A stretch of 42,669 bases of DNA from a bacterium (GCA_963663405.2 CAXXSM010000165.1:1-42669), one strand, 5' to 3'. Numbered from the stretch's first letter, positions 2,364-39,000 are shown. The notes: generated by a model from the letters alone, not told the origin. Translations and numbers: made by a program.

Positions 2364-3794
2364 TCAGCGGATATCATCGACAAGGCCTTTATCGTCTTTG
2401 CGGTTGGGGCCGATACTGCGGACATCGGGATAGATTTTGTCTTTCTCTTTGTAAAGGGAATAGATAAACTTCGATCCCCACGGATCCCGCTTCGGCAACA
2501 GAGGAGGCACGTAGGGGCCGCGCCAGGATTTCAAGTTAAAACTCTGGAAAAGCGCTTCGAGTCCATGATCGTCCGATGGATAACGGCCCACATCGACTTT
2601 GTACCGCTCAAGCGCTTTCCTATAGATATCGATAATCTCACCGATGCTGCGTGTTTCGGCGGGCAGCGTCATGGTCTCATCGATAGCGATACGGTGCGGA
2701 TGAAGAACGGGCATAGGGCCAAACGCGGGCAGCGTTTTCAATGGAGGAACCAACGGCTCCAGATTCACGGCGAGAGGCTCCGGTTCCCACTCGTTCCACG
2801 TCACCATCGCCTGCAGGAGAAAATCGACAATTCCCCGCTCCTTTGTTTTCAGGCGATTGCTGGCGGGAGTGACTTCCAACGTACTGCCGATTTGAAGGGT
2901 GTAGGGCGGATCGTCGCCCCGCCAGAAGGTTAAATCGCTTTTCCCTTTGAGCAAGGTGATATCAATCGCGCCGGCGGATTCTTTCTTTTCCAAATACAGC
3001 GCCGCTTCTTGTACCACAGTTCTCGCGGAATTAAATTTCCAGATCACTTGGTTCCGGCCCGATAAAGTCACGTTCACATTGATCCAGGCTTTGCCCTCGA
3101 TCAAGTCGAGGCCGATGCGATAGAACCGTGTCACCTGATCCAGGCGGATATCATCGAAGCGAATCTGTGTTTTCCCATACAATCCGATCTCTCCCACATC
3201 AGCGGCTTTGATCGTCGCGCGTGAATTGGGAGACACGGCTAAAATGGAATCCAGAGGAATCACAGAGCCTGTTTCCAATGCGGTTCCTTTGCCATCCCGG
3301 AGTGCGCGGGCGCTTTCATACACGTACACCCAACCGCGAATTTCCTTTGCGACCAGAGCGTCATTCTCTTGTTGGAGAATCGAGGATTTGTCTGGAGGGG
3401 TCTCTTCCTCCAATTCGGTCACAATCGCGCCTTCTTTACGCAAGCGTTCGAGAAGTTGGTCCACATTGACATCAACCGAAGTTTTTTCTGGGGTGGGTTC
3501 TACATTTCTGACCGTGCTGCGGTCAAGCAGAACGAGGGAATTATTGACGCGAATCTGCAGATAGGTATGACCGTTATGCGCCGCTTTCTGTTCCCCCACG
3601 ACCTCGCATAACAACCGGGAACCGTCTTTAAGCGTCACAATATCCGCAAATGAGAGACCGTGCAGGAAGAAAATGAAAACCGTGGAGAACACAAAGAAGC
3701 TAAATCCCGCGCCCGGCGCCCGGCATTTTCTTGATGAATGATATCGCGGGCGCCGAATCCAGGGCCACGCATATGGATCGATTGATTCACGCAT
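2364..3794 (-). CDS. Membrane/secreted protein with FecR-like middle domain and C-terminal GspG (T2SSG)-like domain
   Basis: N-terminal hydrophobic segment; FecR-like beta region (VSPNSRATIK, LDLIEGKAW); C-terminus ALERYKVDVGRYPS..GLEAL..WRGPY..DPWG..VRSIGPN..DDI. Confidence 0.7.
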   Translation of the reverse strand: MRESIDPYAWPWIRRPRYHSSRKCRAPGAGFSFFVFSTVFIFFLHGLSFADIVTLKDGSRLLCEVVGEQKAAHNGHTYLQIRVNNSLVLLDRSTVRNVEPTPEKTSVDVNVDQLLERLRKEGAIVTELEEETPPDKSSILQQENDALVAKEIRGWVYVYESARALRDGKGTALETGSVIPLDSILAVSPNSRATIKAADVGEIGLYGKTQIRFDDIRLDQVTRFYRIGLDLIEGKAWINVNVTLSGRNQVIWKFNSARTVVQEAALYLEKKESAGAIDITLLKGKSDLTFWRGDDPPYTLQIGSTLEVTPASNRLKTKERGIVDFLLQAMVTWNEWEPEPLAVNLEPLVPPLKTLPAFGPMPVLHPHRIAIDETMTLPAETRSIGEIIDIYRKALERYKVDVGRYPSDDHGLEALFQSFNLKSWRGPYVPPLLPKRDPWGSKFIYSLYKEKDKIYPDVRSIGPNRKDDKGLVDDIR

Positions 3795-9387: not shown

Positions 9388-10661
9388 CGAAGCCCTCCAA
9401 GCCGTTTCGCTTCGCGGATCCCCTGCCGGGCCACTTTATTCCGTGGGTCGATATCCATGATCCGTTGGTATTCCTGAAGCGCGGCGGAGAAATTGCGCAT
9501 CTGGAAATAAGTCTCCGCCAAATGGTGACGGATATCCAAATTATCCGGTTCATGCTTGAGAGCGTTTTTAAATTGAACGAGCGCTTGGTTGAATATACGT
9601 TGTTCCTTCAGTCGTTTTCCGAAAATAGTATATCCACGAACCAGATGATCGATAACCTGCCCTTTTCCAGGCGCTTTCTTCAAGGCCAAGTTCCACATAT
9701 GAAACGCCCGGTTTTGATTGTTGGTATTGAGATACGCCCACCCGAGTTGACAGAGAACATCGACATCATTCTCATTTTCCCGCAACGCCTGCTCCAACGC
9801 TTCCATGGCTTGCCGCCAGTTGCCCTTCTGGATGCAGGCGTAACCGAGTTCTTTCGCGGATCCCGCCCCTCCGGTTCCGGAAGAGACGCTCCCCCCTTCC
9901 AAAAACTTACCACCGGTGTATTTATGCAACGCGACAATAAGCGCTTTCATATATTCATCATTCGGATTTTCTTTGAGCGCCTCGTTGTACGCTTTCAGGG
10001 CGGAACGCCATGCGTTTTCCGCTTCCTCTTTTTTGCCTTGTTTCTCATACGCGAGGGCTAAATTCTGATACACCGCGCTGTCTATAATGCCTTCCTCTAC
10101 AAGAGACGCGAATTGTTTTTCCGCTTCTGCGTAATTTCCATTTTGGCTTGCTTCATACGCGTCACACCATGTAGCGACTGCGAGATTTTCTTTGGATTCC
10201 TCATCGCTGGGCTCCATTGCAAGAATCCGCCGCCAGATCTCTTTGGCTTCATCTAAATGATCGTGCAAGGCCTGATACAGAGCCATCCCCCGCAATAAGT
10301 GCAGAGCCTGATTCCGGCTGTGATCTTGGAGAGATTCCGGTTCGGCTTCTCCACAGACGGTCTTCATTTCTTGGTTCAGTTTGAAGAGAGAGAGTGGCTG
10401 CCGTGGAAAATCAGGATAATCGGAATGGTAAAACATCGGCGGCGCGGAGAAATTCTCAATATCAGTCGCGGCGCGGGTATGAGGATCTCTCAAAATATCA
10501 TACGCGGTTCGAATTTCAATGAATTCATCGGGAAAATATTCCGGATTGAATTGTTTGACAAGATGAAAGTACTGCGCTTTGATCTTCTCTTCATCTGTCC
10601 AACGGGTTATTTTAAGAATTTCATATGGTGATCGCGTAAGTGTTGTCGTCTGGGTATCCAC
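9384..10661 (-). CDS. J-domain-like + TPR protein (HPD replaced by NPE)
   Basis: SPYEILKI..IKAQYFHLVKQFNPE..FIEIRTAYDILRDP..R is a J-domain pattern, followed by multiple TPRs; GTG start. Confidence 0.85.
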   Translation of the reverse strand: MDTQTTTLTRSPYEILKITRWTDEEKIKAQYFHLVKQFNPEYFPDEFIEIRTAYDILRDPHTRAATDIENFSAPPMFYHSDYPDFPRQPLSLFKLNQEMKTVCGEAEPESLQDHSRNQALHLLRGMALYQALHDHLDEAKEIWRRILAMEPSDEESKENLAVATWCDAYEASQNGNYAEAEKQFASLVEEGIIDSAVYQNLALAYEKQGKKEEAENAWRSALKAYNEALKENPNDEYMKALIVALHKYTGGKFLEGGSVSSGTGGAGSAKELGYACIQKGNWRQAMEALEQALRENENDVDVLCQLGWAYLNTNNQNRAFHMWNLALKKAPGKGQVIDHLVRGYTIFGKRLKEQRIFNQALVQFKNALKHEPDNLDIRHHLAETYFQMRNFSAALQEYQRIMDIDPRNKVARQGIREAKRLGGLR

Positions 10662-11357
10662 AGTTATTCACTCATATTCATTCAGATTTTTAATGCTTCA
10701 GATTAAATTTGAAAGTTTTTTATCCGCCATTGAATGGATGAGAACTACCTGTAACGTTTGATTTTAATAATGGACGGACGGAAAAGCAACAGACGCAGGA
10801 GACTCTCGGTCGTTCAATCTGAAAATGAATCATCTTTCAAGCCATTCGGGCAGTACATTCAGCCATGTAAGTAATTTATATAATAATGAACCCCACGAAA
10901 TTAATAGCATATAAGGTTTAGGGATCGAGGTCTAGGGTCTTGGATGATTCTCCATATCCGATTCCGGATTTCATTATCGCGTAAGATCCTGAATTCATTA
11001 TTTTTATAATAATATATAAGAAATAAGTTTTCTTAAGCGCTGATTCGCGTCTCTCCTCCTAACTCGTTGTTTTTTAGTTGGATATGCTATATCCTAATTC
11101 CTTCTCGCGGCACAAGTGACACGCGCCGGTCAATCAACGACGTTTCTTGTTTTTTTTTAAATGAGTCTCTAAAACTATCTTATTCGTAATATATGTCGCA
11201 GCTCATTTCCATTTGCAATTGTGATCTCAAATCATGATGGTTACCATGATTCCGTCTGGGAGGATGACGATAATGAGTATAAAATTAATGGATCGTCACA
11301 GTTGGATAGAGCGAACATAACTCGATCGCCGAAGAAAATCGAGGTGAAATTGATTGT

Positions 11358-11921
11358 ATGATCGTGCCGAACATAAAATTTTCAGAATTATTGGTCACGC
11401 ATCCCGTGCTTCTGCTCTCCTCCCGAAGCGGACGTTCAAACACCGTGGCGCCGCTAACATGGTATATGCCCGTGAGTTTGGATCCGCCATTAATCGCCAT
11501 TTCTTTAAAACCCAGCGCGTTGAGTTGGCGTTACGTGCGGGAATCCGGTGATTTTATCCTCGCGGTTCCGGGAGAATCCATGCTGAAAGCGGTTCAATTC
11601 TGCGGCGTTCATTCCGGTCGTGACATGGACAAAATACACCACTTGGGCTTACAAACCGCATGGGGAAAAGCCGCGAGTCCTTTGATGCTGACGGGCTGCA
11701 TGGCGAATATCGAATGCCGGACGCGGGACATCCATCAAACCGGCGCCCGGCCATTGATCGTAGGAGAAATCCTTTCGATTTACGCGGATGAGATTTTTTA
11801 CAAAGATGGATGGCGCCCTAACGCCCGTCTGATTTATTACGCTGGAGGGAATCGGTACCGCATTGACAATGAGATCATAGACATGGGTCACATCCGCCCT
11901 GGATATGTGCCTCCCATATAA
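11358..11921 (+). CDS. Flavin reductase family protein (DIM6/NTAB-like)
   Basis: PVLLLSS..NTVAPLTW.MPVSLDPPLI, FCGVHSGRDMDK, NIEC motifs; GAGGTG RBS. Confidence 0.85.
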   Translation: MIVPNIKFSELLVTHPVLLLSSRSGRSNTVAPLTWYMPVSLDPPLIAISLKPSALSWRYVRESGDFILAVPGESMLKAVQFCGVHSGRDMDKIHHLGLQTAWGKAASPLMLTGCMANIECRTRDIHQTGARPLIVGEILSIYADEIFYKDGWRPNARLIYYAGGNRYRIDNEIIDMGHIRPGYVPPI

Positions 11922-11923
11922 AT

Positions 11924-12352
11924 ATGATGACTGAGACTTCGGGGATTGTCACAATGCTGGATACCAGCTCGATCGTGGCGGCTTTTTTCGGCTCCCGCGC
12001 GAAAAAACTATTGACCGCGTGGGGACACGGCGCTCTGATCCTCTATTACAGCGAAGCGATTTGGAGGGAATATCAACGGATTCTAATGAAGATCCCACCG
12101 ATCCGCCGGAAATCACAGTGGTTTTTAAGCGAGATTCAAGTCAACCGGTTCGCTGTAAAAATCGGGAAAACACCCGTTGTCCGGATCCCGCTCGAAGATC
12201 CCGAAGACCGCAAGTTCCTCGCGTGCGCCCAGGCGGCGAAGGCGGAATATCTAGTGTCATTGGACGCGCATCTCTTGAACGTTCGCGAGTATCATGAGAC
12301 AAAAATAGTACGGCCGGGGGAACTGCTCCGGGAATTGAAGAAAAAACATTAA
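11924..12352 (+). CDS. PIN-domain protein (putative toxin, PIN_3-like)
   Basis: LDTSSIVAA, EYQRIL and DPEDRKFLACA..AEYLVSLDAHLL carry the acidic PIN residues. Confidence 0.85.
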   Translation: MMTETSGIVTMLDTSSIVAAFFGSRAKKLLTAWGHGALILYYSEAIWREYQRILMKIPPIRRKSQWFLSEIQVNRFAVKIGKTPVVRIPLEDPEDRKFLACAQAAKAEYLVSLDAHLLNVREYHETKIVRPGELLRELKKKH

Positions 12353-14298: not shown

Positions 14299-15834
14299 CT
14301 ATTTCATCCATAATTTGCGGTCGAGTGTCCGGTATTGGACCGCTTCACTGATGTGCTGTGGCAGGATTTGACCGGATTGCGCCAAGTCGGCTATGCTGCG
14401 GGCGACCTTGATTACACGGGCGTAGGCGCGGGCGGACAAGCCCAGCCGTTCGAGGCCTGCGCGCAGCATATCCCGCGTAGGTTCTTCCATCGGACAATAG
14501 TCTTTAATCTCTTTCGATTGCATATGCGCGTTGCAGAAGATATGCGTGCCGGTGAATCGTTCCCGCTGGATCGCTCGCGCCCGTTCCACCCGTTCACGAA
14601 TCACGGTGGAAGGTTCTCCTGACGGCGGGGCGTGCAGGTCTTCGAAAGAGACGCTGGGGACTTCGACGTGAATATCGATACGGTCCAGCAATGGTCCTGA
14701 GAGTTTGGAGATGTAACTTTGAATCTGGTTGGGCGTACAATTACAGACCTTTTGCCCATCCCCAAAATATCCACACGGGCATGGATTCGCGGCGGCGACC
14801 AGCATGAAGCGACTTGGAAACGTCAGCGAGGCCGCGGCGCGGGATATTGTTACAACGCCGTCTTCCAGCGGCTGTCGCAGGTTCTCTAAAACATTGCGGG
14901 AAAATTCCGGCACTTCATCAAGAAACAAAATTCCATTCGTCGCCAGACTCACTTCTCCCGGCCCTGGGATTCGGCCCCCGCCGATCAATCCTGCGTCGGA
15001 CACCGAGTGATGGGGAAACCGGAACGGGCGAGTCGCGATCAACGGTGTGTTTGACGGAAGGGAACCATGAATGCTGTGGATCTTCGTCGTCTCCAACGCT
15101 TCTTCAAAACTCATCGGCGGGAGAATGCTCGGCAGGCGTTTGGCCAGCATCGTTTTCCCTGATCCCGGCGGTCCGACCATGATAATGTTATGCCCTCCGG
15201 CGGCGGCGACCTCCAGCGCGCGTTTGACATGCTCCTGCCCTTTCACTTCTGAGAAATCGAATTCGTACCTTCCCGATTCTTCAAAGAGTGACCGCACATC
15301 GATCTGGCATGGTTTGTGGTGATTCTCGCCGGATAAAATCTCGACCGCATCGGGCAGGGATCGCGCGGGATAGACGTCGATTCCATCGACAACCGCCGCT
15401 TCCTTCGCGTTTTTTTCGGGAAGCAAAAAAGATTTCAGCCCATGTTTCTTCGCCGCAATCGCTACGGGCAGCGCTCCCCGAATCGGCCGCAGCGTTCCAT
15501 CCAGCGCCAGTTCTCCCAAGATCAAGGTTTCCGCGAGCCGCTCCGGAGGCGTCAGCCCGGACGCCGCCAATACCGCAACGGCCATCGGAAGATCCAGCGA
15601 TGTTCCTTCTTTCGGGATATCCGCCGGCGCCAGATTGAGCGTCATTCGTTTTGGAGGATATGCGTACCCACAATTCACCAACGCCGACCGCACCCGCTCG
15701 CGGCTCTCCTTCACCGCCGCATCCGGAAGCCCGACAATCGTCAATCCCGGCTGGCCGGACGTCATATCGAGTTCGACCTCCATAATATACGCGTCAATCC
15801 CCATCGTCGCGCTGGATAATACCCGGATATACAT
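14299..15834 (-). CDS. comM: YifB/ComM family Mg-chelatase-like AAA+ ATPase
   Basis: [57 protein letters not shown]. Start placed at ATG 15834 after a GGGGGA RBS. Confidence 0.95.
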
Positions 15835-16023
15835 GCTTAATCCCCCGTTCTCTTGTGATACGTTACACAAAATTGAACAAATTGAAAAGCGGAAGAAACG
15901 CGCCAAACAAAACTCAATTTAGTGTTGTGGAAAAAAACAGCGTAGTAAATCTCGCTGGTGATTGCTTGCGTTCTCTGTTGATGTGGAATCGATTGTCGTG
16001 GATCATCGTGGTCCAATCTATTG

Positions 16024-16063
16024 AAAATCATCTTGACATCTTCCTCGTTCATTATCTATGATG
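16024..16063 (+). promoter_or_regulatory. 40-bp direct repeat copy 1, containing a sigma70-type promoter
   Basis: AAAATCATCTTGACATCTTCCTCGTTCATTATCTATGATG; TTGACA-N18-TATGAT; 38/40 identical to 16910-16949. Confidence 0.85.
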
Positions 16064-16242
16064 GATGTCGATATCAAACGAAGTGGGGCGCAGGATTTGG
16101 TAACTTTAATTTTCAATCTTTAGTTTGTTAACATCGAGCCGCTTATTGTCGCCATATGGGATGTTCTGGTTTTCCTAGTTATTTACTCATATTGTGAGTA
16201 AATGGTTTTGCATAAAGGCAGCGATACGACAAAGGAAATGTC

Positions 16243-16893
16243 ATGTTGAGAAAATTATTTGGTTGGAAGAAAGAACGGTCTGAAGAGGAAATCGAAAAAC
16301 TCGAAGACGAATGGTATGACAAAAAAAGTAAAATGATGGAATCTATTCTAGGAGAAGAGCATGGCATGGTCATGCATGCTATTATCCCTTATGAGGTGGG
16401 AGGATCATTAGATCTTTATTATTATCCAAATGAAATTCCAGGGACGGCTGTCGCGACAAAGGAACTAACGTTTGCATGTCAAGAGAGCGCATCCAATGAC
16501 AAGTTTGAAAAATATGAACTTGTCATATTTACCAAACATGATCTGGATTTAGATCAGATTGGAAACAAAGATTCCCCATTCAATCAAGCCCACCACAATA
16601 TCAATGTCATTCTCAATGCCATAGCCCGTTATAGTGAACATGCGAAACTGAATCCGCTTGACACGTGCGAATTTCCACCGGAGATCGAAGAAATAGGTGG
16701 GAAATGCGTCATTTTTTTTGATTATGGATCTGGTACGGAAGGAAAAGAAGAATTTGGTTTGTTAGGGATCATGGAAGTATTTCGGAATGAAATGGAATTT
16801 GCAATGCAAAACGGTACTGGTTTATTAATTGAACGGCTAAAGGGCGAAGGGGCATTTCCTTACTCTGATATGGATCGGGAATCTGTTGTCTGA
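16243..16893 (+). CDS. Suppressor of fused (SUFU)-like domain protein
   Basis: VMHAIIPYEVGGSLDLYYY, ATKELT, YELVIFT, EMEFAMQNG..LIERLK..PYSDMDRESVV match the bacterial SUFU pattern. Confidence 0.8.
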   Translation: MLRKLFGWKKERSEEEIEKLEDEWYDKKSKMMESILGEEHGMVMHAIIPYEVGGSLDLYYYPNEIPGTAVATKELTFACQESASNDKFEKYELVIFTKHDLDLDQIGNKDSPFNQAHHNINVILNAIARYSEHAKLNPLDTCEFPPEIEEIGGKCVIFFDYGSGTEGKEEFGLLGIMEVFRNEMEFAMQNGTGLLIERLKGEGAFPYSDMDRESVV

Positions 16894-16909
16894 CAAGTTA
16901 TTCGATCAA

Positions 16910-16949
16910 AAAATCATCTTGACATCTCCCTCGTTCGTTATCTATGATG
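16910..16949 (+). promoter_or_regulatory. 40-bp direct repeat copy 2, promoter of the prepilin gene
   Basis: AAAATCATCTTGACATCTCCCTCGTTCGTTATCTATGATG, about 35 nt before the prepilin ATG. Confidence 0.85.
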
Positions 16950-16983
16950 AGTAGGCTCTTATTGAACGAAGAGGGAGCGAGAT

Positions 16984-17529
16984 ATGTGGAATCTGAAGAA
17001 TTCCCGGTTTGGCTTTACGCTGATCGAATTGCTTATTGTTGTCGCGATTATTGGGATTCTTGCCGCGATCGCTGTGCCGAACTTTACGCGGGCGCGGCTG
17101 CGGGCGCTTCTGACTTGCATAATCCAGGATATGCGGACGCTGGATCAGCAGATCGATATCTACCGGCTCGATCATGGCCGGCCACCCGTGTCGGATTATA
17201 TCAATGGGAAAAACAGCCTGATCCGCCTTTCTACGCCTGTCGCTTATATGTCCTCCATCCCCTACGATCCCCATCGGAAGAACGAAGAGATCGCCGAGAC
17301 CAACGGTGTCTTTTATAACTATTGGTACAACGAAGAAGACCCATCGCTGCGGTACAACACGGGTGGTTCGCAATGGAGTTCGCAGGGATGGCATATCTAT
17401 ATTTTGTCGGTTGGAATGGATCATGATATCGACTGGATCACATACCATCCCAGCAACGGGCTCGCCTCGAATGGGGATATCCGCTATTTCACTCCCCGGC
17501 GCTTGTCGGATTGGCAGGATTCGCTTTAA
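16984..17529 (+). CDS. Type IV pilin/pseudopilin with prepilin cleavage and methylation site
   Basis: G|FTLIELLIVVAIIGILAAIAVPNF; YRLDHGRPP; LSTPVAYM; DP; SVGMD; YHPSNGLASNGDI. Confidence 0.9.
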   Translation: MWNLKNSRFGFTLIELLIVVAIIGILAAIAVPNFTRARLRALLTCIIQDMRTLDQQIDIYRLDHGRPPVSDYINGKNSLIRLSTPVAYMSSIPYDPHRKNEEIAETNGVFYNYWYNEEDPSLRYNTGGSQWSSQGWHIYILSVGMDHDIDWITYHPSNGLASNGDIRYFTPRRLSDWQDSL

Positions 17530-17605
17530 CGGCGGCGCGGCTGTGTTGCGTTTTTTTGAATGGACGTGAGGAACGGTTTGGTTGAGTTTCACAGGAGAAT
17601 GAATA

Positions 17606-18703
17606 ATGACAAAGACGATATTAACCCGGCGCGGATTTCTAGCAAGAACCGGCCAAGGAGCGTTGCTCGCAACAGCGGGTTCTATCGTATCCACGGCTGA
17701 TGGGGCCGCGTCCGAACCGAAAAGAAGGGGGGCGCAGCGGTTATCCATCGACCGGTTGAAGAACTGGGAGGCGATGGGATATGGGATGTTCATCCATTTC
17801 GGCATGAGCACGTTCACTGGTGGTGAACTGCCGGACGGAAAAGATCCTTCGAGTCTCTACGCGCCGGGAAAACTGGATGTGGATCAGTGGATATCCGTCG
17901 CGAGAGACGCGGGGATGCGTTACGCCGTGCTCACGGCGAAACATGTCGCGGGACATTGTCTTTGGCCTTCAAAGTGCACGGATTACAATGTCACAAACAG
18001 TGGGAACACGACCGATGTCGTAGAAGCGTTTGTGAACGCCTGCGGCCGCCGGGGTGTGAAGCCGGGATTTTACTACTGCTCGTGGGATAATCACAACCGC
18101 TTCGGCAGCCGCACGCCATCCGATGGGGGATGGGATGGGATGAACTCATTCCCTAAAACCCAAACGGAAACACTGCCCCCTTACACAACCTCGCTCTATC
18201 AGAATTTTCAGACGGCGCAGATCACGGAGCTGCTCACGCAATACGGGCCTATTATGGAAATGTGGGTGGATATACCCGGCGTGCTGGGGCGTGGATACCG
18301 GGAATTTCTCTATCACCGGATCGCGTCGCTGCAACCGGATATCTATATCATGATGAACAACGGAATTGGGACGGGTGATCCCTATCCGGTGGATTACGCA
18401 TGGCCCGCCGACCTGATCGCCATTGAACGCCGCCTTCCCCCGGAAACAGGACACCGGAAATGGCGGACGATTGAAGGTAAAGAATATTATATGCCTGCCG
18501 AACTCTGCGATCCGATCGGTAAGAACTGGTTTTGGGTTTCCGGTGACAATCCCCGTCCTGATAATGAACTCGCCGAACAATTCACAACCTGCCGCGAACG
18601 AGGCGCTAACGTCCTGCTTAATGTGCCCCCGGATAAGGACGGATTAATTCCCGAAGTCCATGTGAAAGCGTTGAACCGTCTGCGGAAGAATGTGAATTTA
18701 TAA
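17606..18703 (+). CDS. Tat-exported alpha-L-fucosidase (GH29)
   Basis: TRRGFL Tat motif; GMFIHFG, AGMRYAVLTAKH..G.CLWPS, WVD nucleophile, LLNVPPD..GLI. Confidence 0.88.
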   Translation: MTKTILTRRGFLARTGQGALLATAGSIVSTADGAASEPKRRGAQRLSIDRLKNWEAMGYGMFIHFGMSTFTGGELPDGKDPSSLYAPGKLDVDQWISVARDAGMRYAVLTAKHVAGHCLWPSKCTDYNVTNSGNTTDVVEAFVNACGRRGVKPGFYYCSWDNHNRFGSRTPSDGGWDGMNSFPKTQTETLPPYTTSLYQNFQTAQITELLTQYGPIMEMWVDIPGVLGRGYREFLYHRIASLQPDIYIMMNNGIGTGDPYPVDYAWPADLIAIERRLPPETGHRKWRTIEGKEYYMPAELCDPIGKNWFWVSGDNPRPDNELAEQFTTCRERGANVLLNVPPDKDGLIPEVHVKALNRLRKNVNL

Positions 18704-18787: not shown

Positions 18788-20239
18788 ATGAATATATCCA
18801 GAAAAGGGAAGAATGGATTATCGCGGCGGCGGTTTTTCGTGACCGCTGGGGGGGCTTTAGGGGCGTGTCTGTTGGCGGAAGGGGGATTTCCTTTTGCCGC
18901 GCGGGGGGAACGGAAGATCGTGGCCGCTGGGCCTGCGTCGAAGTACAAACCTAAAATCCAAGCCGCGTTCGTACGCCGGGAGAGTGAATACGGCATGCGG
19001 TGGCCCGGTCAGATTTACGATGGGAAGTCCGCGTTGAAGATGTATTTGGAATTATTCACATCAGCGGCGGAATCGATGGGCGCCCAACTCGATCTGCCAT
19101 CCAAACCGATTTACTCGCTGGAAGAAGCGGGGCAGTGGGTCGATCGGGCGAAAGCGGAAAAACCGGATGGATTGTTTGTAATTCTCCTCGACCGGCAAGA
19201 GCACGCCTGGCCTGCGGCGACACTGGCGGCGGAGAGCGGTATTCCCACCGTGATCTATTCACCTGTCGGCTCGTCTTTCACGACGAATACAGTAAAACTG
19301 GCCAAGCGGGATGGATTGTTTATCAGTTCGACCGATGACGCGCGGCAGCCGATTTATGGGATGAAGATGATTTGCGCCGCCGCCAAGTTGCGGGAGATGC
19401 GCTTTATCGTGCTGAAAGGCGACAAGCGCTATGACACAGCGATGGACTTTTTTAACACACGGCTGCGCTACGTTCCCGCCAATGCGTTTTTGGAAGAATA
19501 CCAGCGGACGCCAACGAATGAGGAAGTGAATGAAATCGCCAATCAATATATGAGAAACGCGAGGCGGATTCATGGCGCCCAGTTGGATGATGTGAAGAAC
19601 GGGGTGAAAAGTTATATCGTCGCCCGCACGATTCTGGAGCGGGAAGAAGGCGATGGGATCACGATGGATTGCCTGGGGGCGCTGGGTAAATCGAAAGTAA
19701 GTTTGCCCTGCATCGCCTGGTCGCGGATGCTCGATTGTGGAATCCCCGCCGCATGTGAGGCGGATCTCGGCGCGGCGCTTACGCACGCCGCCGTCCAGTA
19801 TCTCTTCGATCGGCCCGGATTCCAGCAAGATCCGGTCGCGGAGACTGCGAAGAACTGCCTGATCGGCGCGCACTGTACCTGCGCCACACGGTTGAATGGA
19901 TTCTCGCAGCCGCCGGAGCCGTATCACCTCTCGCATCATCATGGGAACCGCGACGCCGTTCCCATTCCTGAATGGCGTGTGGGGAATCTGATGACGTCGG
20001 CGGATATTGTTCCACGCAAAGACGCGGCTCCGCAGATGATTATCTCATCCGGCACGGTGGTTGATAATGTGTCCGTGCCGCCCGCTGGTGGGTGTGTGGT
20101 GTCCGTGATGGTGCAATTGGATGGAGTGGAGGAGTATCTCGATTACCCCGGCTTCCATCAAATCTTCTTCTATGGGGATTATAAGAAAGAACTTCGGGAT
20201 TATTGCCGGTTATATGGGATTGAACCGGTGGTTGTTTAG
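18788..20239 (+). CDS. Tat-exported L-fucose/L-arabinose isomerase-like protein
   Basis: SRRRFF Tat motif; GITMDCL..PCIAWS.M..GIPAACEADL, AHCT and GFH..FFYGD resemble the FucI-fold C-terminal region. Confidence 0.6.
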   Translation: MNISRKGKNGLSRRRFFVTAGGALGACLLAEGGFPFAARGERKIVAAGPASKYKPKIQAAFVRRESEYGMRWPGQIYDGKSALKMYLELFTSAAESMGAQLDLPSKPIYSLEEAGQWVDRAKAEKPDGLFVILLDRQEHAWPAATLAAESGIPTVIYSPVGSSFTTNTVKLAKRDGLFISSTDDARQPIYGMKMICAAAKLREMRFIVLKGDKRYDTAMDFFNTRLRYVPANAFLEEYQRTPTNEEVNEIANQYMRNARRIHGAQLDDVKNGVKSYIVARTILEREEGDGITMDCLGALGKSKVSLPCIAWSRMLDCGIPAACEADLGAALTHAAVQYLFDRPGFQQDPVAETAKNCLIGAHCTCATRLNGFSQPPEPYHLSHHHGNRDAVPIPEWRVGNLMTSADIVPRKDAAPQMIISSGTVVDNVSVPPAGGCVVSVMVQLDGVEEYLDYPGFHQIFFYGDYKKELRDYCRLYGIEPVVV

Positions 20240-20483: not shown

Positions 20484-21539
20484 TTATTGATCCAGTGAAT
20501 CAAATGATTTGACTCCTGAGGTGAGATCGCTGATGTCCCAGATGTGGATATTCGAGCCGTTGACGGTTAGAAAGCGTTTGCCGTCCGGGAAAAACTGGAG
20601 ATAAGAATCGACGCTATCCGGCGCGTTTTTCTCCGCCTCGAGGGAGGTGGCGTACGACCGGATTTCCGAACCTGTTTCATTGTTGAAAATTCGGCGGTTG
20701 CGTACTTCTTTGGAGTATGAATCCTGATAGCCTCCTAATATTGCATATTTTCCATCCGGCGAGAGTGCTATCACATTAGATGAATGATGAAATCCAGGAA
20801 TCGTTCGTATTACTTCGCCAGTATTCACATCATAGATATTCCCAATACGGCTCAGTAGATATTTCCAATTACTAGAAATTCGACAACCACTACTTGGAAA
20901 TTCACCGATTTTTTCTCCTGTTTCGATATCAACTAGATATGCGCTACCAGATTCCTGCTTTAAAAAAGTCTTTCCATCTGGAGATACTTTGATGTATCTG
21001 ACATCTCCTCTAGGTTCATATCGCCGTATTTCTTTACCAGTTGTTGTATCCCACAATTGCACTTCTCCGTCACTATCACCCGTGATCAATTGCGAGCCGT
21101 CGGGAGTAAAATCACAGGCAGTGACACCAAGGATGTAATAAACAGATTGGGGATCCTTTGTCCATGTGAACGTTTTGATGATAAAAATGTTTTCTCCAGT
21201 GACCATATCCCAATATTGCCCACGGAAGTCAAATATTCCTGTAAATATATGTCTTCCATCAGGAGAAAAGACCGCGGATGATATCCAACTCGCATTATTC
21301 GTATAATGCAGGATTTCCCGGCCTGTTTCAGTATCCCATATTTTGGCGGTTTGAAGTCCTCCCAATAACTGTTTCCCGTCGGGTGAAATGGCGACTTTGA
21401 GTGAGAAATCACCTTCGTATTGGGTATTGATAGTTAAAAGCGGCTGCCCATAGGCTTTGCCAGCGGCGCCGATAAATGGAATGAGTAATGAAATCGCGAT
21501 CAGGTAAAGATTGGTTGTGTTTTTTCTGGAAATAAACAT
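20484..21539 (-). CDS. Secreted WD40 beta-propeller protein (paralogue 2)
   Basis: Signal peptide; repeated SPDG...WD units. Confidence 0.9.
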   Translation of the reverse strand: MFISRKNTTNLYLIAISLLIPFIGAAGKAYGQPLLTINTQYEGDFSLKVAISPDGKQLLGGLQTAKIWDTETGREILHYTNNASWISSAVFSPDGRHIFTGIFDFRGQYWDMVTGENIFIIKTFTWTKDPQSVYYILGVTACDFTPDGSQLITGDSDGEVQLWDTTTGKEIRRYEPRGDVRYIKVSPDGKTFLKQESGSAYLVDIETGEKIGEFPSSGCRISSNWKYLLSRIGNIYDVNTGEVIRTIPGFHHSSNVIALSPDGKYAILGGYQDSYSKEVRNRRIFNNETGSEIRSYATSLEAEKNAPDSVDSYLQFFPDGKRFLTVNGSNIHIWDISDLTSGVKSFDSLDQ

Positions 21540-21577
21540 GTTCTTTTTCTTGTCTACGCCATTCGTTATTTAAATGT

Positions 21578-21608
21578 ATCCGAAGGGGCTTGTGGAGCCC
21601 CTTCGGAT
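21578..21608 (-). terminator. Terminator hairpin after WD40 gene 1
   Basis: 13-bp stem, near-identical to 20442-20472. Confidence 0.75.
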
Positions 21609-21619
21609 TGTTGAGCTGA

Positions 21620-22672
21620 TTACTGATCCAGGGAATCAAATGATTTGACTCCTGAGGTGAGATCGCTGATATCCCAGATGTGGATATTCGAGCCGTTGAC
21701 GGTTAGAAAGCGTTTGCCGTCCGGGAAAAACTGGAGGTAAGAATCGACGCTGTTCGATGCGTTTTTCTCCACCTCGAGGGAGGTGGTATACGACCGGATC
21801 TCCGAACCGGTTTCATTGTTGAAGATTCTTCTGTTCGCTATTACTTTTTCTTGCTGGTCTGCCACGCCTCCGATAATGGAATATTTCCCATCAGGAGAGA
21901 TGGCAAGCGCTTTTGTCACATTAGGAAGAAGGGGAAACATTTGAATTTCATCACCTGTGTTGATATCAAATATTCGCAAGCACTGCCCCATATTTGAAAG
22001 CATATATTTCCAATCCTTGGAAATCGAACAATAGGCGCTTAAAAAATCATTGATAATCTCTCCTGTTTCCATATCAATAAGAAACGCTTGAGAAAAATCC
22101 TGCTTTAAAAAAGTCTTCCCATCTGGAGAAATCTTAATATATTGGACATAGCCTCTAGGTTCATACCGTCGAATTTCCTTTCCCGTCGCTGTATCCCACA
22201 ATTGCACTTCCCCGTTACTGTCACCAGTAATCAATTGTGAACCGTCGGGAGTGAAATCACAGGCGGTGATGCCATGGATGCTCATTACAGTTCGGGGATC
22301 CTTGGTATTTGTGAACGTTTCGATACTATAGATTTTTTCTCCTGCAATCATATCCCAATATTGTCCTACATATCCTGTTGATCCTGTGAATATGTGTCTT
22401 CCATCAGGGGAAAAGACTGATGAGGCAACTGTATTCTCAATATTTGGATAATGTAAGATTTCCCGACCTGTTTCCACATCCCATATTTTCACAGTATAAC
22501 GCCCCGTCAATAGCCGTTTTCCATCGGGAGAAAGAGCGATTTTAGGTGAGGCGTCACAATTGATGGTTAATATTGGCTGTCCATAAACTTTGTTAGCGGC
22601 ACCGATTAAAGGAATGATAAGCGAAAATACGATTGAGTAAAGAATAGATGTATTTCTTGTTATGATAAACAT
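21620..22672 (-). CDS. Secreted WD40 beta-propeller protein (paralogue 1)
   Basis: Signal peptide; SPDG...WD repeats; C-terminal 43 aa identical to paralogue 2. Confidence 0.9.
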   Translation of the reverse strand: MFIITRNTSILYSIVFSLIIPLIGAANKVYGQPILTINCDASPKIALSPDGKRLLTGRYTVKIWDVETGREILHYPNIENTVASSVFSPDGRHIFTGSTGYVGQYWDMIAGEKIYSIETFTNTKDPRTVMSIHGITACDFTPDGSQLITGDSNGEVQLWDTATGKEIRRYEPRGYVQYIKISPDGKTFLKQDFSQAFLIDMETGEIINDFLSAYCSISKDWKYMLSNMGQCLRIFDINTGDEIQMFPLLPNVTKALAISPDGKYSIIGGVADQQEKVIANRRIFNNETGSEIRSYTTSLEVEKNASNSVDSYLQFFPDGKRFLTVNGSNIHIWDISDLTSGVKSFDSLDQ

Positions 22673-22715
22673 GTTCTTTTTCCTTTCTTTTATAAATAAA
22701 TTATTTTTTTGGTAA

Positions 22716-25658
22716 TTAGGGCTCTACAAAGCGAATAAAAATTGGATTATCACTGACGATTTTGTGACTGTCATTAGTATCGTTGTCGGATATGGTAATT
22801 CTTGTTTTTCCCGACGTAGGTGTATTTGCCTGAACGGTCAAGGAATACTTGTTTGATTGGAGAGTAACTAAGGATGGTGGACTCGAATCGAAATCGAATT
22901 GGTAAACTGTTTCGTCGTATGAACCACCGAACACGGCATCCACATCTACCGTTCGACTACCACTTCCAGTACCAATGTATGATGTGTTGGGGACATAACG
23001 CCAAATGGCCACCCATGCTTCATCGGAATAGACGGTTTCTGGATCTCGCCATGCGCACCAAGCAGTATAATCGATAACTATTGGACCTGTTGTTTCATAT
23101 GGTGTAATGATAACATAATCATCACTATCCAATCCTAATGTACTGGATCCAAATAATTCACGTGGCACATACCTGATTTTCCGACTTGTACCATATCCGC
23201 TGTCATTGTTAAAAAAACCAGTGTCAATGACTACGCCATTCTTTGGATGTTGAAAATATTGGATATCCTTCCATCCAATTCCTGGCAAACAGGCGCCCGA
23301 TCCATCTCCCTGGATTGTCGCTTGCAAAAGAGTAGTGCGAAGATAATAAAGCGCTTGCGAGACCTGAGATGCGCCATATGCTCCCCAATCCGAACTTTGC
23401 GAGGGACTAAAGCCATATTCTGTGATGGAAAAATTGGGAATATAACCTTCATTATCGCAGATGTCGAATAGTTCATTTAATCGATATTTCATTTCGGTAT
23501 CTGGATAATCTTCGTCCGGAGCATCTCGAAATTCCGGATTGTACGGACCGGTATAAGTATGAATCGCAATTGTATCTGGCAGTTTATCATTGGTGTTATT
23601 GGCGTCTTCCTGACATTTATTGATAAATCCATGAATGAATTCACCACTGCTGCCAAAAGTTTCGTTATCAGCCCATGTTAGCGTACCATGTTTTTCGATG
23701 CTGCCTCCACTGATGATTTCTATCTTATCTCCCCAATCTTCAGTTTTGATCGCATCGAAGGCTTCAAGGTAATATTCCGCAAAAGATGCGCCATCAATCT
23801 CGTTTCCATACCAATATTCAGGTGGATTACCTTCTCCACTCCACCATTTACATTCTTCTTCGTTACCAAGTTCGATGGCTTGAATGGTATCACCTATCGC
23901 TCCAGGAATTTGGTCGTCGATATAATTCATGCGATATAGTATCCAATCAACGTATCCATCTTTATCGGCAGTGTATCTATTTGTGTTTTCATCTATTATG
24001 TCTTGTACGATCCAATGGGCGGATACATTTGTAATCACGACTCCACAAGCGAAAACTGGAATCACCTTTCTATCATTATCTTTCGCTTCAGAAATGAAAT
24101 TTCTGAATTCTTCTTTCAAATCACCAACAAACAATCGAATTCCTTCCAAATCATCGTCATACATGTGGTTTTGTCGATCTTCTATTCCATAATACTGCTC
24201 ATCAGTTGAGTTTCCCACATCGGCGCCAAAAAGCGACGGCCTATACGTGACATGTAGAATAGGTCTTCTGGTATAATTGATAGAATATTCCCTACAGCAA
24301 ACATACCAACAGGCGCCTGTACTGCTTGTCATCTTGGCCAAAAAACCAAGATTCTCAATATCCGATTTTGCGTTTACAAAATGGGATTTCAACGCTTGTG
24401 TTACGTCGAACTCGATCCATTGATTGCTTGAACTTGGTAGGTTTTGCGCTTTGCTGCAATAAGCAGGAAAAGCATAATCCCCACCACTCGTATCCCACGT
24501 GTTGGAAGAAGTACGATTATACCAATTGGAATTATATTCGGACCATGCATTGGTGACTTTATAAATCCGAGCGCTGGCCACATCGCCTGCACTTTTATAC
24601 GTCTCATACAGTTCTAGTGAAGCGGATACAATCGATGCTCCGACATCTAAGTCATCTACATCAAATCCGAATAAAAGATGATCGTTGTTGTTCCATATAA
24701 GAGATGTGGACATGCCATAATAACTTGAAGATTGATAGGCGAGCCGGGTATCTTGTATCCCGTCGTTGTAATCGAATTCCATGTTCGGATCAATGACCAA
24801 ATCCCCATCCGGCAGGTCTTGTAAATCCGCAAGAAACACGGATAGTTCCGCCAGACCGGGACCGTCTTCACGCAGCTGCCACCGATTCGCCGTCCGAAAA
24901 CGAATCTCTTCATCAATCACTTGTTTGCCTTCGGCATCCAGCAAATAGGTTTCCGCCGGCCGCAGGTGATGGACGGTTTCACCATCCTTCTCAAATACAA
25001 GGGATTGATCCAAGTTGAGATTCTCCGCGTACGGATTGACCTTCTCACCGTTCTGTTTCACCTCGCTGGTCAGCATGACGGCCTCGATGTCAAAACGGGC
25101 GGTGAGATAGTTTTCAGAGTTGATTTCACCTTTTTGCAGGACATCCTTTAAATCCCGCATGAATGAATTCCGCAGGATTACATCAACTTTCATGACGTCA
25201 GGGATGTACCGCACTTCCACATCCACATTTTCAAAGACGTCCAGCCAGCGGATGCGATCGCCGTTCACTTCAAAATTATTGAAGTCCGGCTTTCCTAAAT
25301 CCACGGCCTGAAACTGCGAACCACGCCCATAGCCGAGGCTCGAAAAGCGATAGGTGAACACATCACCTTTGTGATGAGCCTGAAAACGGCCATCGCGGCT
25401 TACAAACAGGCGCCAGATACCCGTCGTGACCTCATAATCCCAATCTGGATCGTCCGATAAACGAAGAGTAGTATCGGTTAGTTGCAACTTGCCGCTCTCG
25501 TCCGGATAATACTTCGGATAGCTGAAAAATGTCATCGTTCCAGGCTTGCTTTTCTCTACAGATTCCGAAACGGGCGCCGGATATTCTTGCGCATACGAAA
25601 CGGATGCTGCGAAAAGTAATCCAATGAAAAAGATCGAATTGCTTATACGAACGTTCAT
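22716..25658 (-). CDS. Large secreted protein: N-terminal domain + DNRLRE-like domain + clan GH-A-like TIM barrel
   Basis: Signal peptide from ATG 25658 (GGAGG RBS); LVIDP boundary; IVSASLELY..W..WYNR..W...GGD..WIEFDVT (DNRLRE-like); ELGNE, AIHTY and ITEYG (GH-A-like catalytic motifs). Confidence 0.7.
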   Translation of the reverse strand: MNVRISNSIFFIGLLFAASVSYAQEYPAPVSESVEKSKPGTMTFFSYPKYYPDESGKLQLTDTTLRLSDDPDWDYEVTTGIWRLFVSRDGRFQAHHKGDVFTYRFSSLGYGRGSQFQAVDLGKPDFNNFEVNGDRIRWLDVFENVDVEVRYIPDVMKVDVILRNSFMRDLKDVLQKGEINSENYLTARFDIEAVMLTSEVKQNGEKVNPYAENLNLDQSLVFEKDGETVHHLRPAETYLLDAEGKQVIDEEIRFRTANRWQLREDGPGLAELSVFLADLQDLPDGDLVIDPNMEFDYNDGIQDTRLAYQSSSYYGMSTSLIWNNNDHLLFGFDVDDLDVGASIVSASLELYETYKSAGDVASARIYKVTNAWSEYNSNWYNRTSSNTWDTSGGDYAFPAYCSKAQNLPSSSNQWIEFDVTQALKSHFVNAKSDIENLGFLAKMTSSTGACWYVCCREYSINYTRRPILHVTYRPSLFGADVGNSTDEQYYGIEDRQNHMYDDDLEGIRLFVGDLKEEFRNFISEAKDNDRKVIPVFACGVVITNVSAHWIVQDIIDENTNRYTADKDGYVDWILYRMNYIDDQIPGAIGDTIQAIELGNEEECKWWSGEGNPPEYWYGNEIDGASFAEYYLEAFDAIKTEDWGDKIEIISGGSIEKHGTLTWADNETFGSSGEFIHGFINKCQEDANNTNDKLPDTIAIHTYTGPYNPEFRDAPDEDYPDTEMKYRLNELFDICDNEGYIPNFSITEYGFSPSQSSDWGAYGASQVSQALYYLRTTLLQATIQGDGSGACLPGIGWKDIQYFQHPKNGVVIDTGFFNNDSGYGTSRKIRYVPRELFGSSTLGLDSDDYVIITPYETTGPIVIDYTAWCAWRDPETVYSDEAWVAIWRYVPNTSYIGTGSGSRTVDVDAVFGGSYDETVYQFDFDSSPPSLVTLQSNKYSLTVQANTPTSGKTRITISDNDTNDSHKIVSDNPIFIRFVEP

Positions 25659-25996
25659 AAGAACCTCCATTTTTTATTTTCAAAACTCTCTAAATTCGAT
25701 AAACTTTGTTGTATCCAATCAATGTTTATCAACAAAAATGGAGGAGGGCGGATACGGAGAGTAAGATTAAATTCTCCTTTACACCACCCAAGCGAACGTG
25801 ATATACTTTTACTAAGTCCGCACTTCATGTGTGGCCTTATTCCTTTCAGGGCATGCATCGGGTCGCCAAACCAAACGATGTATGCCCGATTATAATTAGG
25901 CTAAAAACTGATTATTGGTTATATTCTTATTCTTCACCCCCGATATACTGGAAAGATTTCTAAACTTGTAGAAGGGAACTATACCTCGCTACTACA

Positions 25997-36087: not shown

Positions 36088-39000
36088 ATGATTGATTTCA
36101 AGCGAGTACCCAGCCAGGATTGTATTTCCCCTTTTCTTCCCATCGGACGATTGATTGTATCGATTCTAACCTGCCTATTTCTGTGTTTCCAAACCACCGC
36201 TTGGTCACATCTTGGTGTGGATACGCAAAGCGGGTATCAATCGGGAACGGCGGTGGTTCTTCAGCAACAGTGTGAGCGAATTCATTCTGGAAAGAAGCCG
36301 GGTGTTCATAATCCACTGATTCCTGAAGAATTTTTTGATCGAAATAGAGGAAATCAGATGGAGAACGCTTACCGGTGGCCATCTTTTTACTTCCGTGTCT
36401 CCAGCGACAGGACAGACAGTGATGGAGACGGGTTGCGGGAATGCCGTTTCCACTTGGATTTTTCGGCCTTTGCGGATGGCGGATATACCGAGGGGGAAAT
36501 CACGGATTTTGAAGCGGCGCTGCGGCGTTGTGTGGCGATGTGGAATTCAGCTCTTTCTCATGTTGGGTTGGAATTTTTAGAGGTGAATGACGGCAGTCAT
36601 CATATCCTATTTGAAGCGGCGTCTTTCAACGGGGATTCATCCATCCTGAGTCAAGCGACATTGTTTGGCGCTTGGAGCGAAGAATCACCCGTCTTTCAGA
36701 TTAACAGCAATTACACGAATTTTGGCGCGTATTTTGACTTGTTTAACAATGACGCCCCAGCCGCCGTTCACAAACGCCGCAAGGGAATCCCTATGTTTAC
36801 ATTTTCCCAGAGGAAACTTTTGGAGACGGATTCCGATCAGCCATGTGTTCCACCGGGAGATCGGTCATCTAGTCGGATTGATAGAACCGTGGCTCGCTTA
36901 TGTTCACTCGAAGGATGGAGAACTGGACGAGTATCTGATTGATTGGCTTTCCGCGCCAACGATTGGGGGATTGCCTCCTCGAATCCGTTCGTTTGCATAT
37001 GGGGGAGAAAATCTCTTTACGGCGGGATGGAGCCGGGGATATATCAATTCATTCATGACTGATGACGCGCCCCGCAATGTTCTCTATCCGGAGCTCCCGC
37101 CTCCCATCCAAGCGTTCATCGCCCATTATTACGCCCGTTATGATTATCAAGGAGCGCAAACGCTGTTGAACCAGGCGATTGACGCGCATACCAACGCGTC
37201 TTGGCTAGCGCAAGGGCGGGCCATTCAAGAGATCGAACCGAATGACACACGTTCGGTGAGCGCGAATCTTCAGATCAATCTACCGATTCTAGGCGCGTTG
37301 TCTTCTGTGAGCGCGTCATCTGAAGATATGCGGGAAACCGCCACGGATCTGCAGGATTGGTACCGGTTTGAAATCGTCAACGCTGATTTAGGCCGGGAAC
37401 TGACCTGTTCAGTCAGTACAGGAACCACCATTGGCGTGGAGGCGCAGATTGAGATACGGGATTCACAGAATGGGCTTCTTGCAACGAGTGAGAATGTGGA
37501 ATTTCCTGAAGTGCAGTTCGATCACCAACGGGCGGGAGTGTATTACACTGTAGTGAAGAGCGCGTCATCGGCGTCGCGTGATTATCTTCTTTCTCTCTTC
37601 TTTTCTGATGGGGAGGATGCTCATCAGCCTACGTTTACACCTACCCCGACCGCTTCGATAACTCCAACACAGACGCCGGTCCCGATTCCGGCTTTGAGGA
37701 TTCGAACAATGGACGGATCTATGGTTTGGGCACACTTGAAGCGGTGGCGTATTCACCCGATGGAGACTTGATTGCGACCGGCGGCAGTTTAGGCGTGTTT
37801 TTATGGAATGTAGAGACGGGTCAATTGATTCGCGTACTGGCCGGTCACAGCGCGAAAGTCTCTTCTCTCGCTTTCTCACCTAATGGAGAGGAATTACTCA
37901 CAGGCAGTTATGATGGCACGGCGAAATTGTGGAATGTTGAAGACGGCTTAGAGATACAAACATATACAGATCATTCGGACGCAATTTTGTCTGTCGCTTT
38001 TTCTGCGGATGGAACCTGGATTCTGACGGGGGGAAAAGACAAGACCGCAAAACAATGGGATAAAGAATCGGGAACTATCACGCGCACGTTCAGCGATCAC
38101 AGCGATTGGATCTATTCCGTGGCGATTTCTCCGGATGGTACGCAGATTTTAACAGGGAGCCGAGACAATACAACAAAACTATGGAATGTGGAAACCGGTT
38201 CGGTTATCCGGACCTTTGGCGGGCACAGCAGTTCTGTGCGCGCCGTGGCGTTTTCTCCGGATGGAGAGACGATCCTGACGGGAAGTTCCGACACAACGAC
38301 AATTTTATGGAATTCAACGACAGGGGCGCAGATCCGAACCTACGTGAGCGGTTCGGTTGAATCCGCTGTTTTTTCGGGTGATGGGACGAAAATTCTCGTT
38401 GGGGGATCGGGAAACGCCCGGTTGTGGGACGCGTCTTCGGACACATTGCTTGCGACGTTTAATGAGAACAGCGCGCGAGTGCGGTCGTCGCATTCTCGCC
38501 GGATGGAACAAAAGCGGTTACGGGAAGCGTTCCGAACAATGTGACGCTGTGGAATTTAGAGACGTATGAAAAGATCCGGGAATTCAGCGGGCATACCGGC
38601 GCCGTGTATTCCGTTGATTATTCGCCGGATGGAACTCAGTTCATCACGGGGAGTGAAGACCGGATTGTCCGGTTGTGGGATGTTGAATCCGGGCAGGTTC
38701 TCCGGATTTTGCAGGCCCATACCCGCAGTGTGAATGACGCTTTGTTCTCCGAAGATGGGAAATTTATTGTCACGGCGAGTGATGATAACACCGGCGCTCT
38801 TTGGGACGTTTCGGCGAGTGGAGCACTGTATGTGTTCGAAGGGCATACAGATCGAGTCTATTCCGCCGCGATCTCAATTCAAACCAACCGGGCGCTGACT
38901 GGAGGAGCGGATGGCTCCGCGAGAATTTGGAATATCGAAACAGGTGAGCTGGTTCGAATCCTGACCGGTCATGACGGACCGATTCATTCCGTTGCGCTTT

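Follow-up and report, generated by a model that had tools for sequence, protein, structure and literature searches.

We find that a single gene for a SUFU-domain protein, probably of foreign origin, lies in the chromosome of an uncultured candidate-phylum bacterium between two nearly identical copies of a 40-nt promoter sequence, the second of which precedes a prepilin-type gene. We favor, with about even confidence, the explanation that the foreign gene was acquired beside or inside a duplicated head of the pilin gene and that it reuses the promoter of that head. The anatomy of the locus fits such a reuse of a duplicated pilin head better than it fits the target-site duplication of a cassette; we infer both the horizontal origin of the gene and the order of events. 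The window (the whole stretch of DNA that was analysed, 42.7 kb or 42,669 nucleotides) is otherwise ordinary chromosome with dnaK, grpE, haem-synthesis genes, comM/yifB and a fucosidase gene. The features of the locus are as follows.

14299..15834, minus strand: comM/yifB, encoding a Mg-chelatase-like AAA ATPase of 511 aa with the ATG at 15834 as start, transcribed away from the repeat region
16024-16063, plus strand: left copy of the 40-nt repeat, a sigma-70-type promoter presumed to serve the SUFU-like gene
16033-16038 and 16057-16062, plus strand: boxes of the left copy, TTGACA and TATGAT, matching the consensus and separated by an 18-nt spacer
16072..16167, plus strand: putative decayed remnant, collinear in a gapped alignment with the pilin leader and first ~25 codons (compared with 16960-17060)
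16179..16205, plus strand: AT-rich perfect hairpin or palindrome of 9 pairs (ATTTACTCA / TGAGTAAAT) with a 5-nt loop, then TGGTTTTG
16243..16893, plus strand: gene for the SUFU-domain protein, 216 aa, 39% GC, with a Shine-Dalgarno-like AGGAA before the ATG
16910-16949, plus strand: right copy of the 40-nt repeat, the predicted promoter of the pilin-like gene, starting 16 nt past the stop codon of the SUFU-like gene
16950..16983, plus strand: leader of the pilin-like gene with the ribosome-binding site GAGGGAG
16984..17529, plus strand: prepilin-type gene (type II secretion pseudopilin / type IV pilin-like), 181 aa, matching Pfam N_methyl and TIGR02532
17534..17552, plus strand: computed terminator-like hairpin and T-run, 3′ of the pilin gene
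17606..18703, plus strand: alpha-L-fucosidase gene (Pfam Alpha_L_fucos, E 1.1e-36)

The two 40-mers are ungapped direct repeats, identical at 38 of 40 positions (95%) and spaced 886 nt from start to start. The two differing positions, 16042 (T/C) and 16051 (A/G), both fall within the promoter spacer, so that the longest exact run common to both copies is 18 nt. Each copy holds TTGACA-N18-TATGAT, which agrees with the consensus at 11 of 12 positions, and the edges of the 40-mer are the edges of the core promoter, the block covering roughly -46 to -6. Judged by these motifs, both 40-mers would act as promoters. The pattern of the repeat was found twice in the window, where 0.00 matches were expected from 100 shuffles, and the alignment and this search together bear out the description given in a sequence-only reading of the same DNA, which had reported 40-bp direct repeats of 38/40 identity, each with TTGACA-N18-TATGAT. 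The same reading had named as evidence against itself the case that the 40-mer is a common genome-wide motif. This can be rejected, as only two copies exist in the 82%-complete assembly (8.44 Mb in 170 contigs, 46.9% GC), which was searched by BLAST with each copy and its flanks; the remaining matches were 13–19 nt long. Upstream of 148 pilin paralogues nothing resembles the 40-mer (best other score 30, compared with 72), and an exact 37-mer pattern had 0 matches in metagenome_contigs and 0 in genome_contigs. When we listed the unique two-copy direct repeats of the genome (30–90 nt long, at least 90% identical, 300–4000 nt apart), a sigma-70-like pattern was present in one of 103, namely the present 40-mer. 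An extension of the repeat in the upstream direction, comparing the sequence before the left copy with the 3′ end of the SUFU-like gene, was equalled by 202 of 500 and 85 of 1000 shuffles and is not significant, so nothing suggests that whole units are arrayed in tandem.

The segment between the repeats (16064-16909, 846 bp) has a GC content of 39.0%, compared with about 55–60% for the flanking genes. It is AT-richer, yet not extreme, and lies at the 7.6th percentile of 846-bp windows across a heterogeneous genome (mean 46.9%). It contains a single ORF of at least 50 aa with homologues (16243-16893), and neither the segment nor the 33 window ORFs scanned with Pfam include a transposase or integrase; an AT-richer 846-bp segment with one SUFU-like gene and no such enzyme is also what had been read from the sequence. 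On the left, the comM product scores 643 bits against TIGR00368, the model beginning at residue 29 of a longer 535-aa ORF, and matches Mg_chelatase, ChlI and Mg_chelatase_C in Pfam. Its orthologues are full-length and 70–78% identical in 15 of 19 relatives of the host's family and partial in 3 more. The nearest named relatives are Candidatus Hinthialibacter (76%) and a record labelled Candidatus Omnitrophota (77%), and by this protein comparison comM places the host near Candidatus Hinthialibacter. On the right, the prepilin-type gene matches PF07963 (N_methyl, E 9e-9) and TIGR02532 (33.4 bits, cut-off 16.3), and its product has the N-terminal cleavage/methylation motif followed by a hydrophobic helix. 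It had 150 scored matches in its own genome, which corresponds to about 150 paralogues.

The protein encoded between the repeats is a member of the SUFU-domain family, judged by its relatives and its predicted fold. The label "SUFU-like" is thus correct at the level of family and fold, though the protein's own score against Pfam PF05076 is below threshold (18.8 bits with a cut-off of 25, E 0.0016). Of 996 candidates in a homologue search, 830 reached E <= 0.001, the best being 63–65% identical and many being labelled "suppressor of fused domain protein" in their source records, and all 28 of the 28 aligned family members (53–100% identical to the query) match PF05076 at E <= 0.01, the best at 2.2e-8. 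The AlphaFold2 model (pLDDT 77.6, pTM 0.78) is predicted to have the fold of the SUFU N-terminal domain. In a Foldseek search of the PDB the best 13 matches shown (ranks 1–14) are all SUFU structures (6lph, 4blb, 4bl9, 1m1l, 4kmd and others) at probability 1.00, E 7.7e-4 to 9.7e-3 and TM 0.39–0.43, and the next match has E 0.35; a sequence-profile search of the PDB with the same protein gave nothing significant. A C-terminal DxxR is conserved in the family alignment, D209 being nearly invariant and R212 invariant. The ~215-aa proteins, which have a long N-terminal helix, form a distinct, widespread and uncharacterised subfamily whose named carriers are mostly Planctomycetota and Verrucomicrobiota, while the closest carriers are bins of Calditrichia, Woeseiaceae and Spirochaetia.

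When the protein was used as a query against 41 genomes, matches were found in 2, the host's own genome included, and within the host's family a homologue is present in one of 19 relatives, where it is 35% identical. The GC content of 39%, this scarcity among relatives and the location of the best homologues in other phyla make a foreign origin probable, and we suggest from these comparisons that the SUFU-like gene was probably acquired horizontally. There is no second copy of the gene in its own genome, and no homologue of the family in the plasmid and phage collections searched. The idea that the SUFU subfamily regularly accompanies pilin genes is rejected, since none of 80 homologue loci adjoins a pilin gene; in two of the 80 a pilin gene lies within 4 kb.

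The observation that carries our preferred reading lies just behind the left repeat. In the ungapped register the identity of the two copies ends at both edges of the 40-mer, and a gapped local alignment continues collinearly into the leader and first codons of the pilin-like gene over 110 columns (70 matches, 17 mismatches and 23 gap columns), the similarity going from 95% within the 40-mer to ~64% per alignment column beyond it. Since the similarity runs on collinearly past the 40-mer, the left copy looks like a decayed duplicate of the head of the pilin gene. The score of the whole extension, 47, was reached by 0 of 500 shuffles. Taken separately, the leader part (…AACGAAGnGGG…GCG) was equalled by 2 of 1000 shuffles and the coding part (ATCGAnnnGCTTATTG…TCGCnAT…TGGGAT) by 9 of 1000, and 21 of 1500 real low-GC 147-mers from the genome reached the score of the coding part. 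The start codon is absent from the remnant and an in-frame TAG is present, and its translation, FVNIEPLIVAIWDVLVFLV…, corresponds to FTLIELLIVVAIIGILAAIAV in the intact pilin gene. When the heads of 148 pilin genes of the genome were compared with the remnant, the adjacent pilin gave the best match, although in this scoring its lead is only marginal (47 vs 43, 42, 42 and 41).

Searches with profiles gave no such signal. An nhmmer profile built from 135 pilin heads found nothing in 15837-16242 with the filters off, and the remnant is missing from the 158 genome-wide matches of that profile; nor does Pfam N_methyl match the translated remnant, whereas the corresponding 25 residues of the real pilin are matched at E 1.8e-7. 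The remnant is thus backed by pairwise DNA alignment alone. Weighing these results, we regard the remnant as probably real. At its mismatch rate, two or fewer differences have a probability of 0.009 over 40 positions, or of 0.07 over the 28 positions outside the hexamers. The step from 95% to ~64% calls for one more assumption, namely that selection acted on all 40 positions or that gene conversion took place.

Between the remnant and the SUFU-like gene, 38 nt before the start codon of the latter, stands the hairpin at 16179-16205, for which a junction scar, an operator or a weak attenuator are putative roles. Terminator prediction does not call it, and it is not a trait of the family, as a perfect hairpin of at least 7 bp precedes 9 of 77 homologues and none of these is alike. 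The fold of the 191-nt leader is no better than that of shuffled sequences (z 0.72), and an Rfam scan of 15800-17100 returned two chance-level matches only, both to eukaryotic families (E 0.061 and 0.51). From 5′ to 3′, the locus can be read as promoter, decayed pilin head, hairpin, foreign gene, promoter and intact pilin gene.

We suggest the following course of events. The head of the resident pilin gene, comprising core promoter, leader and first codons, would have come to be present in two tandem copies, of which the right one still fronts the intact pilin gene, while the left one would have lost its pilin coding sequence and would now have the acquired SUFU-family gene behind it. For the duplication, one possible route is that the pilin gene was doubled in tandem and its first copy overwritten afterwards; the other is that ~145 bp were duplicated when illegitimate recombination joined the foreign DNA. 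The useless pilin remnant would have decayed afterwards, and the 40-nt core promoter may have been kept near-identical by selection for promoter function, by gene conversion, or by both. In this way the SUFU-like gene would owe its transcription to a copy of the pilin promoter put to new use. The transcript from the left promoter could also continue into the pilin gene: no terminator-like site lies between 16063 and 16984, which makes read-through possible, so that two promoters may serve the pilin gene, and the first terminator-like site outside coding sequence downstream of the left promoter is that at 17534-17552.

Among the relatives compared, all of them outside the host's genus and without synteny at the comM and pilin loci, neither an intermediate nor an empty state of the site was found. 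Orthologues of the pilin-like gene are 79–83% identical in 5 relatives (of five genera) and 62–66% identical at four further loci. Within 1.5 kb of these 9 loci there is no comM, SUFU or fucosidase gene, and their upstream regions are unalike. Conversely, the neighbours that comM has in the window are not shared beside comM in 18 relatives, apart from three cases of paralogues: in G018 a pilin paralogue of 35% identity is oriented divergently to comM, in G013 another lies downstream of comM, and the comM locus of G012 has a paralogue (28%) of the gene at 18788. The C-terminal part of the pilin matched four loci in metagenome contigs, the best at 79% identity, and none of the four has comM, a SUFU gene or the promoter. 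When promoter and leader were compared with the region upstream of the 80% orthologue in G012, 11 of 500 shuffles reached the score, this being one of five such tests; that region has TCTTGAC… and …AGCGAGAT before the start. The likeness fits, weakly and at the level of sequence, a promoter that is native to the pilin lineage.

The sequence-only reading had proposed that a cassette was acquired with an unusually long target duplication that gave both the incoming and the resident gene a promoter. Parts of this hold, namely the probably foreign gene, the real repeats and the unique 40-mer. The clean long target duplication does not, as a decayed similarity to the pilin head goes on for ~100 nt beyond the left copy. 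In a sharper form of the proposal, the 40-mers would be the attL and attR sites, or the long target duplication, of an 886-bp element without integrase that inserted into the pilin promoter and brought a promoter copy along, so that the target gene stays expressed, as with islands that restore the end of a tRNA gene. Genomic islands that target tRNA genes are flanked by direct repeats of tens of bases, and the copy carried by the element restores the target gene. Our locus resembles them in that direct repeats of tens of bases flank inserted DNA. It differs in that the repeat is a promoter and not a tRNA end, in that the homology to the target continues inside the supposed element, and in that there is no integrase, other copy or sign of excision. 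The near-identical block with its sharp edges in the ungapped register, the lower GC of the insert, the single cargo gene of a patchily distributed family and the mere 16 nt between its stop codon and the right repeat all suit an inserted element, but we consider this decidedly doubtful. No recombinase or transposase is encoded in the insert or among the ORFs scanned in the 42.7-kb window, there are no terminal inverted repeats (none of the 3 inverted repeats in 15000-18000 joins the ends of the insert), and neither the 40-mer nor the SUFU-like gene has another copy in the genome. Furthermore, no further record in metagenome_contigs or genome_contigs contains the 37-mer, the plasmid and phage collections lack the gene family, none of 80 homologue loci adjoins a pilin gene and only two have one within 4 kb, and the similarity to the pilin head persists within what would be the element. 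Signs of an integron gene cassette are missing as well, there being no inverted repeat at the 3′ end of the gene and no integrase in the window. A narrower version, in which the 40-mer serves as the core for recombining a tiny, promoter-targeting cassette that has no integrase and is mobilised in trans by a recombinase encoded elsewhere, we regard as a long shot. The sharp 40-nt block is the sole positive support for such a promoter-carrying mini-cassette; were it true, the cassette would express both its cargo and its target and would be a promoter-targeting counterpart of the tRNA-targeting islands.

A further reading, which we consider unlikely but by no means negligible, is that two old tandem pilin paralogues stood here, that the left one was destroyed, and that its core promoter was overwritten by gene conversion in either direction, the 40-mer then being a recent conversion tract separate from the acquisition event. 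The abrupt fall from 95% to ~64% identity would be explained in this way, other pilin heads score close to the adjacent one when aligned with the remnant (43, 42, 42 and 41 vs 47), and tandem pilin paralogues do occur in relatives, for example with three matches within G018:C66:4891-8356. On the other hand, a 40-nt tract that ends exactly at the promoter edges would be a coincidence unless selection shaped it, and the leader part beside the 40-mer is specifically similar (2 of 1000 shuffles), a likeness that the leaders of the paralogues may or may not share. It is very improbable that the two genes independently bear the binding site and promoter of one regulon: both copies are indeed complete core promoters, but independent origin accords poorly with an identity of 38/40 that includes the spacer, and with the lack of a third copy in 8.4 Mb despite ~150 pilin paralogues. 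Least credible of all is an assembly artefact in which the repeat served as the point where low-GC DNA from a different organism became attached, the metagenome bin being of low coverage. The assembly has 170 contigs at 82% completeness, and the depth is ~3.7 and 2 in the two runs that contain the locus, out of three runs of one study whose reads were checked as contigs (depth ~3.7, 2 and 0). The copies, however, have no exact run in common beyond 18 nt, which is expected to be shorter than usual assembly word sizes, and a graph misjoin through the repeat copies is therefore unlikely. In addition, a separately built 15.5-kb contig from run X1 spans 15000-18000 with 0 differences, and a contig from run X2, which comes from the same sample, runs from comM through the left repeat and includes the first 14 nt of the insert. 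Run X1 may be the source of the window itself and does not count as independent support, and the X2 contigs leave parts of the stretch uncovered. Neither a joint that skips the 886 nt nor a circle junction was seen in the contigs of the three runs, though data of this depth and type would not reveal rare forms.

Reuse of a duplicated pilin head would have well-described parallels. A survey of reused promoters upstream of unrelated genes found more than 4000 families, mostly pairs, that are ~92% identical (Nijveen, Matus-Garcia and van Passel, 2012, PMC3575422), and these putative mobile promoters were proposed to rewire or supply expression. The present case is alike in that a near-identical promoter stands before two genes that are mutually unrelated by Pfam, with no known mobile element. 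It differs in length, the survey having set a minimum of 50 nt at 80% identity or more, whereas our block has 40 nt at 95%, followed by a weaker, gapped extension. It also differs in that the copies are adjacent (886 nt apart) and that one still has a degraded part of the donor gene behind it, which suggests that the route was a local segmental duplication. The cit+ case of the E. coli long-term evolution experiment, as cited in PMC3575422, is likewise one in which a tandem duplication set a gene behind its neighbour's promoter; the gene there was a silent resident, whereas ours is apparently foreign, and the event in the window is old enough for a coding remnant to have decayed. On present evidence the event is thus of a known kind, promoter reuse or capture, and no new class of mobile element.

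As to what the gene does, the sequence-only reading named SUFU domains as immunity proteins of polymorphic toxin systems, which is documented: Zhang et al. (2012, PMC3482391) assign to SuFu domains an immunity role against toxins of the HNH/EndoVII fold and others, list GxS, E, E and DxxR as the conserved residues of Imm-SuFu (Table 3), and treat toxin-free solitary immunity genes as polyimmunity loci. The window protein agrees with that description in its SUFU fold and family, in its C-terminal DxxR (D209, R212) and in being encoded by a solitary gene. It differs in belonging to the distinct ~215-aa subfamily with the long N-terminal helix, and in that adjacency to a toxin gene, the setting by which an immunity role is recognised, is absent both here, where the upstream neighbours are the promoter, the remnant and the divergent comM, and at the 42 homologue loci scanned. 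That scan covered the first 42 of 80 homologue loci, or 80 of 152 neighbour ORFs, and none of the 80 ORFs had a toxin domain at E <= 1e-5. The neighbourhoods are heterogeneous: 46 of the 80 ORFs have no Pfam family, and a Tdi1-type immunity domain, an ankyrin protein, a tyrosine recombinase and a Uma2 nuclease each occur as single cases. Elsewhere in the same genome a classical SUFU gene (96.7 bits) directly follows and overlaps an ORF with PT-HINT and GH-E nuclease domains; by its domain content this is a textbook toxin-immunity pair, and transposase fragments adjoin it. Going by its family, the window protein is most likely an orphan immunity-type binder that would neutralise a toxin from other bacteria.

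For the family, the window contributes a solitary member to the ~215-aa subfamily, whose toxin-free setting in the loci examined poses the question of whether its members are orphan immunity proteins or have another job. For the organism, if our preferred reading is true, the locus would be a tidy natural case of an acquired gene gaining expression through the duplicated promoter of its neighbour, in an uncultured bacterium of a candidate phylum in which the stub of the donor gene is still visible and records the route.

Between the pilin-like similarity and the SUFU-like gene lies one further element, 38 nt upstream of the start of the gene and close to the end of the similarity:

16179-16205: AT-rich perfect palindrome with arms of 9 bp and a loop of 5 nt, followed by TGGTTTTG

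This palindrome may act as an operator or a weak attenuator, or may be the scar of a junction, and a comparison of the regions upstream of homologues of the SUFU-like gene showed that it is not common to them.

A canonical polymorphic-toxin cassette is found elsewhere in the same genome, at locus L107 (G000:C122:114908-118372), where the following two genes share a 4-nt overlap, with coding sequences for an HTH protein and part of a transposase downstream of the pair:

L107:560-1387: toxin ORF with PT-HINT and GH-E (HNH/EndoVII) nuclease domains
L107:1384-1977: classical SUFU immunity gene (96.5 bits)

Other genes of the window have a GC content of 42-44%, below that of their surroundings, namely several WD40 beta-propeller genes and the gene for a protein of 984 aa that carries a disaggregatase-related repeat, located at 20484-25670 and 37726-39521. 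Outside the window, a direct-repeat scan of the genome revealed two CRISPR-like arrays, on contigs C103 (~9650-12240) and C75 (~16090-16640), whose repeats are GTATCTCCTTATCCCTTTGTAAGGAGCGGATTGAAAC and GTTTCCACTGATCAATATCAGTGGCCCCATTGAAG, with a period of ~70 nt.

A divergent comM/pilin arrangement is present in a relative from another genus of the family (locus L127, G018:C16), in which comM (3033-1501) and a prepilin-type gene (3179-3721) are separated by 146 nt; this prepilin-type gene is a paralogue of the pilin gene of the window (35% identity) and not its orthologue. The prepilin-type family is hugely expanded, with 65-152 scored matches per genome in our genome and 19 relatives from the family. 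The N-terminal prepilin motif alone has 148 matches in our genome, the heads of which carry a nearly invariant FTLIELLIVVAIIGILAAIAVPNF. Within the window, the minus strand encodes at 2364-3794 a pseudopilin-like protein that is unusually long at 476 aa; a match to the type II secretion protein G domain covers its C-terminal end (residues 388-467).
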